Shown in pieces: positions 605 to 5,748 of a DNA stretch of 5,803 bases. This DNA is from a virus (Duplodnaviria; Heunggongvirae; Uroviricota; Caudoviricetes), in IMG/VR virus record IMGVR_UViG_2537562152_000014; one strand, given 5' to 3'. The notes below the pieces were generated by a model. That model was not told the DNA's origin and did no database searches. It saw only the letters and a program-made list of their open reading frames with translations. The position numbers were made by a program, and so were the translations under genes. The first letter of the stretch is position 1; every line of letters starts with the position of its first letter.

Positions 605-1243
605 ATGAACAAGCAAACAATATCTGAACGCATAACCCAACGTATGCATGCGCTAAACTTGAAAGGCAAAGACCTTGTCAATGCCACTGGCGCATCAAAA
701 GGCTCCGTAAGTCAATGGATGAACGGTGGAGGAGCGCCGTCCTCGCGTTACATAAGTTCACTGGCAAAGATATTGAAAGTAAACGAAAATTGGCTTCTTA
801 ATGGAGGAGAGTTAAATACAGGTGATTCGCTTGATCTATCTTTACCGCCGATAAAAACGGTTCCGCTACTATCACTTCAGCAGGCAGCAAGCTGGAGTGA
901 TTATATGAAAAATTCCTCAATAACCTCTTGTGTGCAGCTTGTCGGAGAAATCCCGGCCAATACCTTTGCTGTTGTTCTAGAGAGTGACAGTATGTCGACA
1001 TCTGGTGGTGGAGTTTCCATCCCAAATGGTTCAACAGTTTTTGTTGATCCCGATCGAATCGTACAACCAGGAAATATTGTCCTTGCCTTACCCAAAGGGA
1101 CCACAACGCCTGTCATTCGCAAACTGGAGATAGAAGGGCCGGATATTCTTTTAGTCCCCACGAATCCTCGCTACCCTTCAATTATGCTGGATGATCTATC
1201 TTGCATATTGGGAGTATGCTTTAAAATTCAACAAGATATTTAA
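605..1243 (+). CDS. CI-type prophage repressor: N-terminal HTH domain plus C-terminal LexA-like S24 autopeptidase domain
   Basis: 212-aa ORF. The N-terminal segment (ISERITQRMHALNLKGKDLVNATGASKGSVSQWMNGGGAPS) has an XRE-type HTH pattern. The C-terminal part carries the S24 catalytic signature: Ser in ESDSMS and a Lys about 40 residues later in VIRKLE. An in-frame TAA at 593-595 leaves 605 as the first possible start, and no SD precedes it. Confidence 0.85.
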   Translation: MNKQTISERITQRMHALNLKGKDLVNATGASKGSVSQWMNGGGAPSSRYISSLAKILKVNENWLLNGGELNTGDSLDLSLPPIKTVPLLSLQQAASWSDYMKNSSITSCVQLVGEIPANTFAVVLESDSMSTSGGGVSIPNGSTVFVDPDRIVQPGNIVLALPKGTTTPVIRKLEIEGPDILLVPTNPRYPSIMLDDLSCILGVCFKIQQDI

Positions 1244-1307: not shown

Positions 1308-1356
1308 AATGTTTTGATAAAAAAACATTGACCTTAAATGTTCGTTTTTCTAAACT
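1308..1356 (+). promoter_or_regulatory. PL-like promoter of the early-left (ydfA-dicF-dicB) operon with an overlapping operator palindrome
   Basis: -35 TTGACC (1328-1333), 17-bp spacer, -10 TAAACT (1351-1356). A perfect 8-bp inverted repeat AATGTTTT (1308-1315) / AAAACATT (1322-1329) with a 6-bp spacer overlaps the -35, and a further AATGTT half-site lies at 1337-1342. The core TGTTTT-N6-AAAACA is the same as the palindrome at 588-605. Confidence 0.45.
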
Positions 1357-1535
1357 TCATTCATTCCCTCACCCCGCCCCACAGAATGCAGGGCAATACT
1401 TCGAGTTACCAGGCAGTGGTCAGGGGTTAAGTAGCCAGCCCGAGGCGTAAGAACATGACGGCAGGGTTCAACTTTAATAACTATGCAGCAGGTTTTTGTT
1501 CCGCTACCCCGGCGTTAAGGGGAAATGAGGTCAAC

Positions 1536-1688
1536 ATGGATACGCTCAATCTTGGCAACAACGAATCTCTGGTATGTGGCGTGTTCCCCAACCAGGACGG
1601 TACGTTCACCGCGATGACGTATACCAAAAGCAAAACGTTTAAAACTGAAGCTGGCGCGCGTCGCTGGTTAGCCAGAAACACTGACTGA
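1536..1688 (+). CDS. ydfA: DUF1391-family small prophage protein (YdfA-like)
   Basis: 50-aa product MDTLNLGNNESLVCGVFPNQDGTFTAMTYTKSKTFKTEAGARRWLARNTD from ATG 1536 with GAGG SD (1527-1530) 5 nt upstream. The ORF track extends it to 1455, but that start has only a weaker, more distant GAGG. Size and position (first gene after the repressor, in the dicB operon) match my recollection of K-12 ydfA. The stop overlaps the next gene's RBS. Confidence 0.6.
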   Translation: MDTLNLGNNESLVCGVFPNQDGTFTAMTYTKSKTFKTEAGARRWLARNTD

Positions 1689-1699
1689 TGAGGTTGACG

Positions 1700-2338
1700 A
1701 TGGAATTTAAAGATTTACCTCCTTCAATCCAGGAGATTGCAGCACACACACTTCGTCATCGTCTGAACGAACTTGAATTGGAATCGGTAACGAAAAAAGA
1801 CACTGATAATATGGCTCGTAATGTGCGCGATGCGTTTACCGGATTGTATTTCTGTGCGTCTATAAATAAACACGACTCAGAGAGTGTGGCAAATAAAATT
1901 GCAGAAACGACAGCGCAAAACATCAATACGAAACCAACGGAAGAAGAAATTGATCAGTTTGCTCATGATGCTGGTTTAAAAAACAAGAAAGAAAAATCGC
2001 CATATGCGGGGAACATGTTTGTTTATGACAATCTCATCAGAATTCGTGGCGAAATTCCGGCGGAATACCTGGCAAGAGTCCATCAGGCATTGCTTAAAAA
2101 TTTGGAAACAGAATTATTTGATGGCAACACTAACGGTTTCTTCATGGTATCAGGCCTTGAGAAAGACTGGGATGCAGAAAAACGCTGGAATGTTGCTACA
2201 TGGTTATTCAGTAACAGAGCCGCTGCACTGGAAGCTTCGGCATGTATTTGCGGCCTGTTCTTAACAGACCACAAATATAATCTGGATGTGTACAGTTATA
2301 TTTACGCTGAACACGGTCCACTCTGGATTGACTGGTAA
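1700..2338 (+). CDS. Hypothetical protein (212 aa), unrecognised cargo gene in the early-left operon
   Basis: Long ORF; start set at ATG 1700 (MEFKDLPPSIQ...) because GAGG (1690-1693) lies 6 nt upstream, whereas the ORF-track start at 1688 has no SD. No recognisable catalytic motif or TM segment. Sampled 60-nt stretches are about 37-40 percent GC, against about 50-63 percent in the right-hand part of the window. Confidence 0.65.
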   Translation: MEFKDLPPSIQEIAAHTLRHRLNELELESVTKKDTDNMARNVRDAFTGLYFCASINKHDSESVANKIAETTAQNINTKPTEEEIDQFAHDAGLKNKKEKSPYAGNMFVYDNLIRIRGEIPAEYLARVHQALLKNLETELFDGNTNGFFMVSGLEKDWDAEKRWNVATWLFSNRAAALEASACICGLFLTDHKYNLDVYSYIYAEHGPLWIDW

Positions 2339-2548
2339 TTATAAGGAAACACCAGCAGGGCCGCGGCGACCAACAGAACGATTAAAATCAATAATGCCAT
2401 TATAAAGGACATTATTTAATTTATCGTCGAATGCTGATTCTGTGAGCCTCAACTCTGAATGAGTTTTTAATAACCCTGATTGCCTGAGTTGATTTACCAG
2501 GCATTCAATCTGTTTTTCAATAAGCGGATTTCTTTTTTTGTTTGGCAT
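2339..2548 (-). CDS. Hypothetical small protein (69 aa), convergent with the 212-aa gene
   Basis: The minus-strand ORF 2339..2560 contains an internal ATG at 2548-2546 preceded by a perfect GGAGG (complement of 2554-2558) with a 5-nt spacer, so the SD-supported product is MPNKKRNPLIEKQIECLVNQLRQSGLLKTHSELRLTESAFDDK... Its stop codon (2341-2339) directly abuts the stop of the plus-strand 212-aa gene (2336-2338). No family recognised. Confidence 0.5.
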   Translation of the reverse strand: MPNKKRNPLIEKQIECLVNQLRQSGLLKTHSELRLTESAFDDKLNNVLYNGIIDFNRSVGRRGPAGVSL

Positions 2549-2885
2549 TTTATCCTCCATTGAGGTTCTGGGTTAAAAATGGAGACCAACACGCTGTCAC
2601 GTGTGGTCGTGCGCCGGACACGGATAAGAATCCGGTACTGACAGTTTACTGAAAGGATATTTCCCTGAAAAGTCAGTGCATAACGCGAAAGCGTACGGCG
2701 AAGCTCTTTCCCTTAGAAGGCTTGTCGTTAGATTTCTTCGAACGTGCGCTTCCGGTTGTGGCACTCCGCGAAATGGCGCGGCGGTAAGTATGGCGGGGTT
2801 ATTCCTTCCCCATTGAGGACACCGGGTTGTCAGGTTGACCATACGCTTAAGTGACAACCCCGCTGCAACGCCCTCTGTTATCAAT

Positions 2886-2938
2886 TTTCTGGTGACGTTT
2901 GGCGGTATCAGTTTTACTCCGTGGCTGCTCTGCCGCCC
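2886..2938 (+). ncRNA. dicF: DicF small regulatory RNA (ftsZ translation inhibitor)
   Basis: TTTCTGGTGACGTTTGGCGGTATCAGTTTTACTCCGTGGCTGCTCTGCCGCCC is near-identical to the 53-nt DicF sequence of E. coli K-12 as I recall it, with possibly one substitution. It is followed by a T-run (2939-2943) and lies immediately upstream of dicB, as in the K-12 dicB operon. Confidence 0.75.
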
Positions 2939-2943
2939 TTTTT
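2901..2943 (+). terminator. DicF 3' stem-loop / intrinsic terminator-like hairpin with T-run
   Basis: GGCGG (2901-2905) can pair with CCGCC (2933-2937), enclosing an internal structure, and is followed by TTTTT (2939-2943). Transcription must read through at some frequency because dicB lies downstream. Confidence 0.5.
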
Positions 2944-3112
2944 AAAGTGAATTTTGTGATGCGGTGAATGCGGCTAAGCGCACGCGGAACAGTTAAAACC
3001 AAAAACAGTGTTATGGGTGGATTCTCTGTATCCGGCGTTAATTGTTAACTGGTTAACGTCACCTGGAGGCACCAGGCACTGCATCACAAAATTCATTGTT
3101 GAGGACGCGATA

Positions 3113-3301
3113 ATGGAAACGTTATTACCAAACGTTAATACGTCTGAAGGTTGTTTTGATATTGGTGTTCTGCTCAGTAACCGGGAGTTTACTGAAGATG
3201 CCATTAACATGAGGAAATATGAGCCTTATCTGCTCAATGATAATTCCATACTTTCCCGAATTGCTCTTCTTGAACTTGGTATTTTCGGAGAACGTCAATG
3301 A
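3113..3301 (+). CDS. dicB: DicB-like cell division inhibitor (MinC-dependent FtsZ-ring inhibitor)
   Basis: ORF-track ORF 3008..3301 trimmed to ATG 3113, which has GAGGA (3101-3105) 7 nt upstream. The 62-aa product METLLPNVNTSEGCFDIGVLLSNREFTEDAIN... matches the N-terminal half of K-12 DicB (MKTLLPNVNTSEGCFEIGV...) as I recall it, with a more divergent C-terminal half. It sits directly downstream of DicF. Confidence 0.85.
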   Translation: METLLPNVNTSEGCFDIGVLLSNREFTEDAINMRKYEPYLLNDNSILSRIALLELGIFGERQ

Positions 3302-3486
3302 CTTCAGCATTTGCACTGATGATGACGGTTTTTCTTATAACGGGTGAATCACAGAATGTGATTACCGGAATTTATGCCAGTAAAGAATCCTGCCTCCAGG
3401 CAAGAGACGAGCAAAAAATTTCTGGTGAATGCCTCCCGGTAAAAAAAGTATCGCTGTACCTGAATAACGAAACACCGGCTGGATAA
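3298..3486 (+). CDS. ydfD: YdfD-like small membrane (lysis-type) protein
   Basis: 62-aa ORF whose ATG (3298-3300) overlaps the dicB stop (3299-3301) as ATGA, suggesting translational coupling. It has an N-terminal hydrophobic segment SAFALMMTVFLITG. Size and position immediately after dicB match K-12 ydfD as I recall it. Confidence 0.6.
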   Translation: MTSAFALMMTVFLITGESQNVITGIYASKESCLQARDEQKISGECLPVKKVSLYLNNETPAG

Positions 3487-3578: not shown

Positions 3579-4796
3579 ATGAGCACTGATAAAGAAGAAT
3601 TTGCGCTATATTGCGAAGCAAAAAATGACAAAGTCAGAAAACGTCTGGGAATTAAAGGTGGTTTTTACTGGACTACAGCAAAAAAATTATCTGTTGCCAT
3701 CTCCCGCTGCATTACCGCAATGGATGACAACGATTATGATGAAGACGACTTTAAAAAACCCGTTCGCGTCCATTTACCCGTTGTGAATGACCTTCCACCT
3801 GAAGGCGTGTTTGATACCGAATTCTGCAACCGATACGAAAAAGGCGGGGAAGATGGCATTACAATGGTATTTATCGCGCCCTCTCCCTCCGTGCAGGAGA
3901 AACCAGCCAGTACTGACAATACCAACGTCAACGGCGAAGACATGACGGAGATTGAGGAGAATATGCTCCTGCCGGTTTCTGGTCAGGAGCTGCCCATTCG
4001 CTGGCTTGCGCAACACGGCAGCGAAAAACCAGTAACGCACGTTGCACGGGAAGAACTTCAGGCATTACATATAGCACGGGCGGAAGAACTGCCGGCTGTT
4101 ACTGCCCTGGCCATTTCTCACAAAACAAAGCTGCTCGACCCGCTGGAGATTCGCGACCTTCACAAACTGGTACGCGACACTGACAAAGTTTTCCCTAATC
4201 CCGGTAATTCAGACCTGGGACTGATAACTGCTTTTTTCGAGGCATACCTGGACGCTGACTACACTGATCGGGGTCTGCTGACAAAAGAGTGGATGAAAGG
4301 AAATCGTGTTTCGCGTATCACCCGTACGGCTTCCGGTGCAAATGCCGGTGGCGGGAACAAAACCGATCGCAATCCGAATTTAGTACACACCTTCGATACG
4401 CTGGATGTGGAGATTGCAGCAGCCACACTTCCGATGGATTTTAATATTTATGAAATTCCGGGCAGCGTTTATCGTCGCGCAAAAGAAATCGTCCTGAAAA
4501 GAGAAAGTCCGTTCAAAGAATGGTCCGCAGCACTTCGCGCAACCCCGGGTATTCTGGACTATTCCCGCGCCGCTATTTTTGCACTTATCCGGAGCGCTCA
4601 CCCTGAGTTTTATCACTACCCGGGACGCCTTCAGGGGTATATCAACGCCTACTTAACGGAGACTGATCACGAGAACCCCAGCAAGGAAACTCTCACTGCT
4701 GCACGACATACACCGGAAAAAGATTCTGCAAAAACTTTTGTTCAGGAGACGCTGAAAGATACCTGGGAGTCTGCTGACGAGTGGTTTGTTCGCTAA
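3579..4796 (+). CDS. Hypothetical prophage early-left protein (405 aa), possibly an intact homologue of the gene after ydfD in Qin-type prophages
   Basis: Long ORF with GAGG (3568-3571) 7 nt upstream of the ATG. It contains an acidic patch ([10 protein letters not shown]) and a Gly-rich segment ([15 protein letters not shown]), with no TM segment. Sampled stretches are about 50 percent GC. Function not recognisable. Confidence 0.7.
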
Positions 4797-4799
4797 TTA

Positions 4800-5665
4800 A
4801 CGAGTAAAATCGACCCTGTACACGATTCTGTGTAAATGCCTTTTCTCAGAAGTGACCGTCCAGGCGGTCACCGAACTCGATAATAAAGCGGCTCATTGCC
4901 ATACGCCAGTCCCGCAGTGGCATCGTCCATTTCTGTGAAGCCGCCTGGATTGCCAGCCACACGACCTTTTTCACTGAGTCATCCGTCGGGAACACCTTGC
5001 GTTTTTTGATGGCATGCCGGATTACGCTGTTCAGCGACTCGATGGCGTTGGTTGTGTAGATGACTTTGCGGATATCTGCCGGGTAAGCGAAGAACATCGC
5101 CAGGTTGGTCCAGTTTGCCTGCCAGCTCCGGCTTATCTGCGGGTAGCGACTGTCCCAGGCGCTGGCGAACGCTTCCAGCGCCTGCTGGCCTGCTTCTTCT
5201 GTGGGGGCCTGGTAGATGGCTTTCAGGTCGCGGGTGACGGCTTTGTAGTCCTTCCAGGAAACGAACCGCAGGCTGTTGCGCACCATATGCACGATGCACA
5301 GCTGGATGCGGGCTTCCGGATACACCGTGTTGATAGCGTCCGGGAAGCCTTTCAGCCCGTCGACACAGGCTATGAGAATATCGTTCAGGCCGCGGTTTTT
5401 TAGTTCAGTCAGCACATTGAGCCAGAACTTCGCTCCCTCGTTTTCGGCCAGCCACATACCCAGTAACTCTTTCTGGCCTTCGATATTGATACCCAGTGCG
5501 AGGAATACGGATTTATTGATTACGCGACTGTCCTGCCGAACCTTCAGGACAATACAGTCAAGATAAACAATGGGATAGACCGCATCCAGTGGCCGGTTTT
5601 GCCATTCGACTACCTGCTCCATAACGGCATCGGTGACCTTCGATACCAGCGCCGGTGAGACATCA
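4800..5665 (-). mobile_element. Remnant of an IS256-family insertion sequence (3' part only); boundaries approximate
   Basis: Transposase homology spans roughly 4846-5665. The IS end should lie in the 49-bp gap between the 405-aa gene stop (4796) and the transposase stop (4846). No terminal inverted-repeat partner can be identified within the window. Confidence 0.45.
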
Positions 5666-5748
5666 GGTAAGCGTACAGCCTGAACCGTCTGGTCAGAATC
5701 TGACGAATTAGACAAAGTGGTGCCCACCAAATAAGTAGTGGGAACCAA
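4846..5748 (-). CDS. IS256/mutator-family transposase, C-terminal DDE-domain portion; probably a 5'-truncated remnant
   Basis: The product contains IS256-family hallmarks: DVSPALVSKVTDAV, the first Asp in YPIVYLDCIVLKVRQD, the second Asp in ILIACVDGLKGFPDAI, and the Glu in TTNAIESLNSVIR, followed by the KKRKVFPTDDS tail. The track start at 5748 is a TTG and the frame stays open to the window end, but residues upstream of about 5665 do not resemble the family in any minus-strand frame. Confidence 0.75.
   Translation of the reverse strand: MVPTTYLVGTTLSNSSDSDQTVQAVRLPDVSPALVSKVTDAVMEQVVEWQNRPLDAVYPIVYLDCIVLKVRQDSRVINKSVFLALGINIEGQKELLGMWLAENEGAKFWLNVLTELKNRGLNDILIACVDGLKGFPDAINTVYPEARIQLCIVHMVRNSLRFVSWKDYKAVTRDLKAIYQAPTEEAGQQALEAFASAWDSRYPQISRSWQANWTNLAMFFAYPADIRKVIYTTNAIESLNSVIRHAIKKRKVFPTDDSVKKVVWLAIQAASQKWTMPLRDWRMAMSRFIIEFGDRLDGHF

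Follow-up and report, generated by a model that had tools for sequence, protein, structure and literature searches.

Between the ydfA-like gene and the gene for the small RNA (sRNA) DicF, a defective lambdoid prophage carries two convergent genes, orf212 on the plus strand and orf69 on the minus strand, whose linkage recurs in three prophage lineages. The DNA analysed is the IMG/VR virus record IMGVR_UViG_2537562152_000014, a stretch of 5,803 nucleotides (nt) referred to here as the window. What is conserved is the C-terminal domain of the 212-residue orf212 protein together with the 69-residue orf69 protein, and the pair lies in a slot whose content varies widely among related prophages. We tentatively favour the interpretation that the C-terminal domain and orf69 are accessory partners, placed under opposite expression regimes and serving a conflict or tuning role.

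Both genes are real and under purifying selection

An earlier note on this DNA, made from the sequence alone (the original prediction), gave coordinates, Shine-Dalgarno sequences and abutting stop codons for the two open reading frames (ORFs), all of which agree with the sequence and the ORF list. The orf212 ATG is preceded by GAGG 7 nt upstream, and that of orf69 by GGAGG (2554-2558) at a distance of 5 nt. The stop codons abut with zero spacer (TAA at 2336-2338, TTA at 2339-2341), and the claim that no room is left for a terminator also stands, in that no terminator-like site was found on either strand between or near the pair. RefSeq labels both products, WP_000394548.1 (orf212) and WP_001133037.1 (orf69), as "hypothetical protein". 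In a comparison of alleles from 80 IMG/VR contigs, the ratio of nonsynonymous to synonymous substitution rates (dN/dS) was 0.19-0.36 for orf212 and 0.19-0.27 for orf69, the latter close to the ydfA value. These results clearly establish that orf212 and orf69 are true genes, both under purifying selection.

One might suppose instead that prophage decay has left the two ORFs without function. The window does contain a defective prophage, with a truncated recE and an insertion sequence (IS) fragment, and frameshifted orf69 alleles occur. However, the selection acting on both genes largely refutes this explanation, and the module is conserved across genera and present in 600 complete genomes in up to four copies. 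We regard simple decay as very improbable.

The GC content is 0.41 in orf212 and 0.37 in orf69, as compared with 0.50 in ydfA and 0.52 in the segment from 2609 to 2886. However, dicB (0.38) and the ydfD-like gene (0.42) are just as AT-rich, so that the AT-richness put forward as a sign of horizontal acquisition carries weight only in part.

An alternative orf212 ATG at position 1688 overlaps the ydfA stop codon (TGATG; 1686-1702) and would give a product beginning MRLTMEFK; this start is kept in other cassettes, so that translation of the first gene of the slot may be coupled to that of ydfA.

The C-terminal domain of orf212 stays with orf69 in diverged prophages

The orf212 protein is modular, with a widespread N-terminal domain and a rare C-terminal domain. 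In a profile search of 1.84 billion representatives, the N-terminal domain, which comprises the first ~55 residues (MEFKDLP..IQE.AA...NVRDAF.GLY), was found in ~45 small-protein clusters with unrelated C-termini. The C-terminal domain is marked by the motifs FDGxxNGxF and WxFS..AAxEA, and its occurrence is limited to the Escherichia and Salmonella relatives of orf212 and to a diverged group (P0189, P0210-P0214 and P0176) with 27-31% identity. A tblastn search of deposited phage genomes matched only the N-terminal domain of orf212, in Shiga toxin (Stx) phages, and gave no match for orf69. The N-terminal domain also heads a 147-residue hypothetical protein of Stx2a phages (ArgO145 gp22; L086, 5001-5444), found in ~70 Stx phages; its gene lies in the early-left operon, flanked by genes for a DUF2303 protein and a PAPS reductase.

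Among IMG/VR loci, orf69 was found only beside the orf212 C-terminal domain (73 of 73), and a convergent orf69 sequence was present at 74 of 80 orf212 loci, two of the six exceptions being contig ends. Alleles of the C-terminal domain and of orf69 co-vary, whereas those of the N-terminal domain reassort. The same association was observed in two diverged prophage lineages (P0189/P0214, from Salmonella enterica, and P0176), in which a convergent orf69 homologue invariably comes after the C-terminal domain. There the pair stands immediately after cox, and the prophages have a P2-like int/C/cox switch. The convergent ORFs of these lineages encode 64-69 residues and are 52%, 53% and 42% identical to orf69, and the 3' ends of the pair overlap by 53 or 11 nt. 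The plus-strand proteins begin with another N-terminal domain (MFNVKRNG...), to which P0176 adds HTH_3 (26 bits). The domain swap and the HTH_3 insertion indicate that recombination has exchanged everything upstream of the C-terminal domain and has never split that domain from orf69. These observations support the claim that the two genes belong together, but they redraw the boundaries of the proposed two-gene unit: the conserved unit is the C-terminal domain plus orf69, and the N-terminal third of orf212 is a common module. Cox-related P2-like contigs (52-58% identity) lacked the pair and are too distant to say much.

The int/C/cox prophages (L083, ~7100-7165; L085; L281, ~6380-6420) keep a region resembling the DicF precursor. 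At the place of DicF itself they have a different sRNA candidate, consisting of a hairpin and a T-run, for example TGTGCGTAGTTATATTGGCGGGAAAGGAC..CTGCATTTTTT.

The interval between ydfA and DicF is a variable slot

Alignment with K-12 Qin showed that homology ends just after the ydfA stop codon and resumes at 2608, a 919-bp cassette (1689-2607) standing in for ydfB and ydfC. It also confirmed that these two genes alone lie between ydfA and DicF in K-12, as the original prediction stated; by eye only, YdfB and YdfC look unrelated to the orf212 and orf69 proteins. Among 80 viral contigs with DicF, at least 14 length classes of the interval from ydfA to DicF can be distinguished, ranging from 262 to 1359 nt. 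The commonest is the K-12 type (~726 nt), and the orf212/orf69 module appears once. The module is present in 600 of 5426 complete E. coli genomes (~11%), mostly of Shiga-toxin-producing lineages, as compared with 4759 that match the DicF-region query (1400-3400), and it is combined with several different alleles of cI/cro, dicB, ydfD and recE. The original assignment of this interval as a variable cargo position is thus supported.

In representatives of the other length classes the plus strand carries ydfB/ydfC or a MEFKDLP-domain protein, and the minus strand in many cases carries an unrelated small ORF of 66-143 residues. Three unrelated antisense ORFs begin, as orf69 does, at the MEDKM / GGAGGATAAAATG region. 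Because the same start serves unrelated ORFs, the antisense position appears to be a generic platform.

Hairpin 1, which lies upstream of orf69, is present in other alleles (L064 and L073) as its exact reverse complement with the loop flipped; such an inversion would be as expected from template switching within a palindrome. A second antisense insertion point is located to the right of the conserved hairpin (L079, 4799-5557; L103). Its cargo is a 143-residue ORF with a coiled coil and a zinc ribbon (CxxC...CxxC), which occurs together with either ydfB/ydfC or orf212.

Operator and promoter context

A perfect TGTTTT-N6-AAAACA palindrome occurs twice in the window, at 588-605 and at 1310-1327, and only ~0.6 matches would be expected in the window even with two mismatches allowed. 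The palindromes are probably the OR-like and OL-like operators of the CI-like repressor. The copy at 1310-1327 abuts the −35 element of a promoter-like site upstream of ydfA. Because the palindrome of the cro/cI region recurs at the predicted ydfA promoter, the operon containing orf212 is likely to be controlled by the repressor, which is in line with the original prediction. Transcription of dicBF in K-12 begins upstream of ydfA and continues through to DicF (PMC10448788); the corresponding transcript must therefore read here through orf212 and the antisense strand of orf69. A degenerate copy of the palindrome is found at 542-560.

On the opposite strand the picture is less clear. Promoter-like sites were no commoner than in shuffled sequence (3 found, 3.6 expected), and no promoter above chance was found for orf69. 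Candidates at 2671-2643 (8 of 12 matches), at 3048-3021 (9 of 12 matches) and at 2576-2547, the last of which overlaps the ATG, were rejected as weak. Footprinting against the diverged loci L083 and L085 and against K-12 gave no decisive signal. The suggestion that orf69 exerts transcriptional interference on dicF-dicB is thus a conjecture.

One could nevertheless envision that the module acts primarily in cis. Convergent transcription or a long antisense RNA might throttle ydfA-orf212-dicF-dicB, or guide processing by RNase III, with the protein being secondary. The abutting or overlapping stops in all three lineages, together with the absence of a terminator from both strands, are consistent with such a role, as is the finding that DicF maturation needs RNase III and a transcript crossing the slot region (PMC10448788). 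However, the reading frame of orf69 is itself constrained as a protein, as its dN/dS shows, and the motifs SGLLK and PAG..L are invariant across homologues with only 42-53% identity to it. Considering also the promoter result, we think a cis role improbable.

Partners or neighbours

Several observations weigh against a partnership. In 8 of 80 related loci, the A7 run near the 5' end of orf69 is an A6, which causes a frameshift that cuts orf69 to 17 residues. These alleles could be the product of phase variation, a fixed pseudogene lineage or a homopolymer assembly error. In three others of the 80 (L067, L077 and L079), an internal deletion affects orf69 and leaves orf212 intact, and these loci have an additional antisense gene on the right side of the hairpin. 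Altogether orf69 is frameshifted or deleted at ~14% of loci (~11) that retain an intact orf212, and in one locus (L081) orf212 is disrupted and orf69 is intact. Hence, neither gene strictly needs the other, and the pattern of frameshifts and deletions argues against an obligatory antidote role for orf69. Moreover, plus- and minus-strand cargos reassort among the other cassettes; a 128-residue plus-strand gene, for example, is found without an antisense ORF or with either of two different ones. The diverged lineages are also syntenic over the whole block, which includes the hairpin motif GTGCGCCGGACAC..TCCGG and extends to the sRNA-precursor region, so that the linkage could be due to inheritance without an internal recombination point. 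The promoter result for orf69 described above belongs on the same side.

The main rival interpretation is that orf212 and orf69 are unrelated neighbours, an accessory gene of the early operon and an antisense moron, which remain adjacent only because their abutting or overlapping stop codons leave nowhere to recombine between the conserved left and right handles of the slot. The free mixing of cargos exemplified by the 128-residue gene, the MEDKM start common to several unrelated antisense ORFs, the loss of orf69 from loci that keep orf212, and a cross-lineage synteny that extends to the hairpin and sRNA precursor and is, thus, not specific to the pair all speak for it. What it does not readily explain is that the linkage has outlasted divergence to 27-31% (C-terminal domain) and 42-53% (orf69) identity, a change of backbone and replacement of the N-terminal domain, or that orf69 was never seen without the C-terminal domain in the 73 IMG/VR loci. 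We consider this interpretation a serious possibility, although on balance an unlikely one.

Function searches and protein properties

Neither protein matched a family in Pfam or NCBIfam, and PADLOC-DB 2.0 yielded 0 families for either at E<=1. A Foldseek search of the Protein Data Bank (PDB) gave no match for orf69. The sole match of a PDB sequence-profile search, to Noc (E 0.036), was rejected as a chance similarity of a low-complexity helical stretch. No toxin fold or family and no DNA-binding antitoxin domain was recognised in either protein, and no publication on orf212 or orf69 was found. The original statement that the 212-residue protein has no recognisable domain is in line with the Pfam, NCBIfam and PADLOC results. 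Full-length likenesses do exist, of orf212 to PHROG 2151 (E 1.8e-147) and of orf69 to PHROG 4274 (E 1.2e-51), both function-unknown clusters, and some sources call orf212 "Ybl81" (E. coli B); these are names only and add no biology.

The orf212 protein is acidic (pI 5.2). Its AlphaFold2 model is weak (predicted local distance difference test, pLDDT, 63); in it the N-terminal part is helical and the C-terminal part is alpha/beta. The invariant residues of the C-terminal domain are mainly hydrophobic or structural, with the addition of D, N, S and E, and they do not include a His/Lys/Arg catalytic set. Such a composition points to binding, and not catalysis, as the likely role of the domain. The basic orf69 protein (pI 9.7) gave a poor model (pLDDT 66) with helices at residues 8-24 and 37-58, followed by a disordered but conserved tail, R(R/G)xPAGxxL. 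No membrane segment was detected in either protein, the maximum 19-residue Kyte-Doolittle mean being 1.16 for orf212 and 0.22 for orf69.

The original prediction had singled out the module as a candidate for defence, exclusion or toxin-regulator genes. According to this explanation, one protein would be toxic or would block superinfecting phage, as in a toxin-antitoxin or abortive-infection system, with the second serving to neutralise or regulate the first. The module adjoins the immunity region and lies in a hypervariable slot, as is typical of conflict genes, and the two proteins form a tightly linked pair of opposite charge. The neighbouring dicB is reported to protect against phage (PMC6832061). 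Among ten alternative antisense ORFs a single one matched a family, namely GhoS, and only weakly (21.8 bits against a cut-off of 21). This is a 98-residue ORF at slot offsets 151-447 of L165, just at the Pfam gathering score for this type V antitoxin endoribonuclease. On the other hand, the database and fold searches provided no positive evidence for such a function; PADLOC gave no credible match for either protein, and only chance-level matches for ten alternative cargo ORFs, and Pfam and NCBIfam showed no toxin or antitoxin domains. In addition, orf212 and orf69 are convergent and are not co-transcribed, either can be lost singly, and the invariant residues of the C-terminal domain include no His/Lys/Arg catalytic set. 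The proposed likeness to exclusion genes fares no better, given that the orf212 and orf69 proteins are soluble, in contrast to RexB and SieB. Furthermore, orf69 is repeatedly lost while orf212 remains intact. We judge a toxin or defence pair of this kind to be rather unlikely.

Prophage setting and feature coordinates

The window spans the early genes and the immunity region of an E. coli O157:H7 / O121 prophage. Many complete genomes are 100% identical to it over 1400-3400, and strain MA11 is collinear with the entire window, which is true of no other genome in the list of the 12 best matches. The Qin-type layout of the early operon is present, with ydfA upstream and DicF and DicB downstream, all on one strand, and the stretch between orf69 and DicF is conserved and non-coding. 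The features are listed in Table 1.

Table 1. Features of the window, from left to right, with elements of the orf212/orf69 module.
Feature	Position	Strand	Remarks
YdaT-like gene and P22-Cro-like gene	left end of gene order	-	
CI-like repressor	605-1243		212 aa (amino acids); helix-turn-helix (HTH) + S24
Operator-like palindrome TGTTTTGATAAAAAAACA	1310..1327		half-sites identical to 588-605 (cro/cI intergenic)
Promoter-like TTGACC-17-TAAACT	1328..1356	+	upstream of ydfA, position of dicBp / early-left promoter; consensus match only
ydfA-like gene (DUF1391)	1536..1688	+	conserved left flank of slot; Pfam DUF1391 102 bits
orf212	1700..2338	+	212-aa acidic soluble protein; WP_000394548.1, PHROG 2151, "Ybl81"
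N-terminal helical MEFKDLP...NVRDAF.GLY domain of orf212	1700..1870	+	
Cassette-specific C-terminal alpha/beta domain of orf212	1982..2335	+	residues ~95-212
orf69	2339..2548	-	69-aa basic protein; WP_001133037.1, PHROG 4274
A7 run	2533..2539	-	orf69 codons 4-6
orf69 translation-initiation region ATGGAGGATAAAATG	2546..2560	-	Shine-Dalgarno GGAGG + ATG
Hairpin 1 (CCAACACG-CTGTCA-CGTGTGG)	2586..2606		upstream of orf69
Conserved motif GTGCGCCGGACAC...TCCGG (hairpin 2)	2609..2635		kept in diverged prophage lineages
DicF sRNA	2887..2938	+	downstream context; Rfam 75 bits
dicB	3113..3301	+	downstream context; Pfam DicB 125 bits
DUF1482/ydfD-like gene	after dicB in gene order		
recE-like ORF, truncated, then IS256-family fragment	right end of gene order		

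The repressor ORF at 605-1243 (L001, 11206-11844) encodes HTH_3 and Peptidase_S24 in a protein of 212 residues. The RefSeq annotation of TR01 gives only the C-terminal 112 residues, as a "LexA family protein", leaving out the HTH. At 3579-4796, a 405-residue ORF fuses a fragment of Exonuc_VIII (RecE) to the final 24 residues of a DinI-like protein. In most O157:H7 genomes this place is ~980 bp longer (an integrase remnant and a dinI-like gene), which indicates a deletion in the window. At 4846-5748, the minus strand has a truncated IS256-family transposase gene, whose copy in TR01 is broken by an IS66/ISEc8 element.

Discussion

We propose, as a tentative model, that DicF-type prophages have a recombination hotspot in their early, repressor-controlled ydfA-dicF-dicB operon, that the module is accessory cargo at this site, and that the C-terminal domain of orf212 and orf69 act as partners, most simply by direct binding. 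The opposite charges of the two proteins can be counted in favour of a partnership. In this model, orf212 would be made only once repression is lifted, and expression of orf69 from the other strand would depend on signals located in the conserved right flank. Where the convergent transcripts overlap they would work against each other, and derepression might then flip the ratio of orf212 to orf69. The output would be an accessory function, in conflict between phage and host or between phages or in the tuning of early expression, and would not be an essential phage step. We infer in particular that orf69 is expressed, that the two proteins interact physically and that the pair confers some phenotype.

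A bolder version, which we regard as doubtful, is that the whole ydfA-to-DicF interval is an unrecognised double-stranded accessory hotspot, in which the C-terminal domain and orf69 constitute a new two-protein conflict system. Plus-strand cargo would ride on the early lytic transcript, often behind the common MEFKDLP domain serving as an adaptor, and antisense cargo would plug into a fixed platform formed by the conserved hairpins and the GGAGG-ATG start of MEDKM. The system, whether for defence, counter-defence or self-immunity, might be switched by derepression through convergent transcription and protein-protein titration.

The accessory-partner model and its bolder version concern a module that sits on the transcript yielding DicF and DicB, both of which affect cell division and phage resistance; DicF also affects virulence in enterohaemorrhagic E. 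coli. If orf69 is expressed, convergent transcription could set the amount of DicF and DicB in the lysogen. The pair is one more orphan prophage module, yet it is conserved and is widespread in Shiga-toxin-producing E. coli. The slot, with conserved handles on both sides, is a defined place in which dozens of orphan prophage genes, early as well as antisense, could be screened for activity in defence or anti-defence. Finally, the presence of the N-terminal domain on many different C-termini provides a testable lead to a common targeting or adaptor function.

Comparison with known systems

The arrangement resembles type II and type V toxin-antitoxin systems in that a small protein and a larger one, opposite in charge, form a tightly linked pair. 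It differs from them in that orf212 and orf69 are convergent and do not form one operon, are devoid of toxin or antitoxin domains, and can each be lost alone. Like lambda rexAB and P22 sieB, orf212 and orf69 are accessory genes near the repressor of a lambdoid prophage; however, they share no sequence similarity with those genes and encode no membrane segment, and orf212 is predicted to lie on the repressed lytic transcript rather than on the lysogenic one.

A close relative in layout is ydfABC-dicF-dicB of K-12 Qin, which has the same flanks (ydfA, the DicF precursor region, DicF, dicB and the ydfD-like gene). It differs in that ydfB/ydfC are replaced here by orf212 and antisense orf69, and in that the repressor of the window is a CI/LexA-like HTH+S24 protein and not DicA.

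Morons and accessory hotspots in temperate phages are exemplified by lambda bor and lom and by the defence hotspots of P2 and P4; the concept of morons is reportedly due to Hendrix, and the P2/P4 hotspots are said to have been described by Rousset et al. in 2022. The module is like these in being a cassette of highly variable content between conserved genes, with a GC content below that of its immediate flanks, and it is like bor in that one gene, orf69, is oriented against the surrounding operon. The proposal that it is a moron is supported as regards its insertion between conserved phage genes, but not as regards a promoter and terminator of its own, since no terminator was found near the pair and no promoter stood out above chance. 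It also departs from typical morons in that its plus-strand gene belongs to an early operon and begins with a common N-terminal domain, and in that antisense genes of the slot make use of one fixed initiation region.

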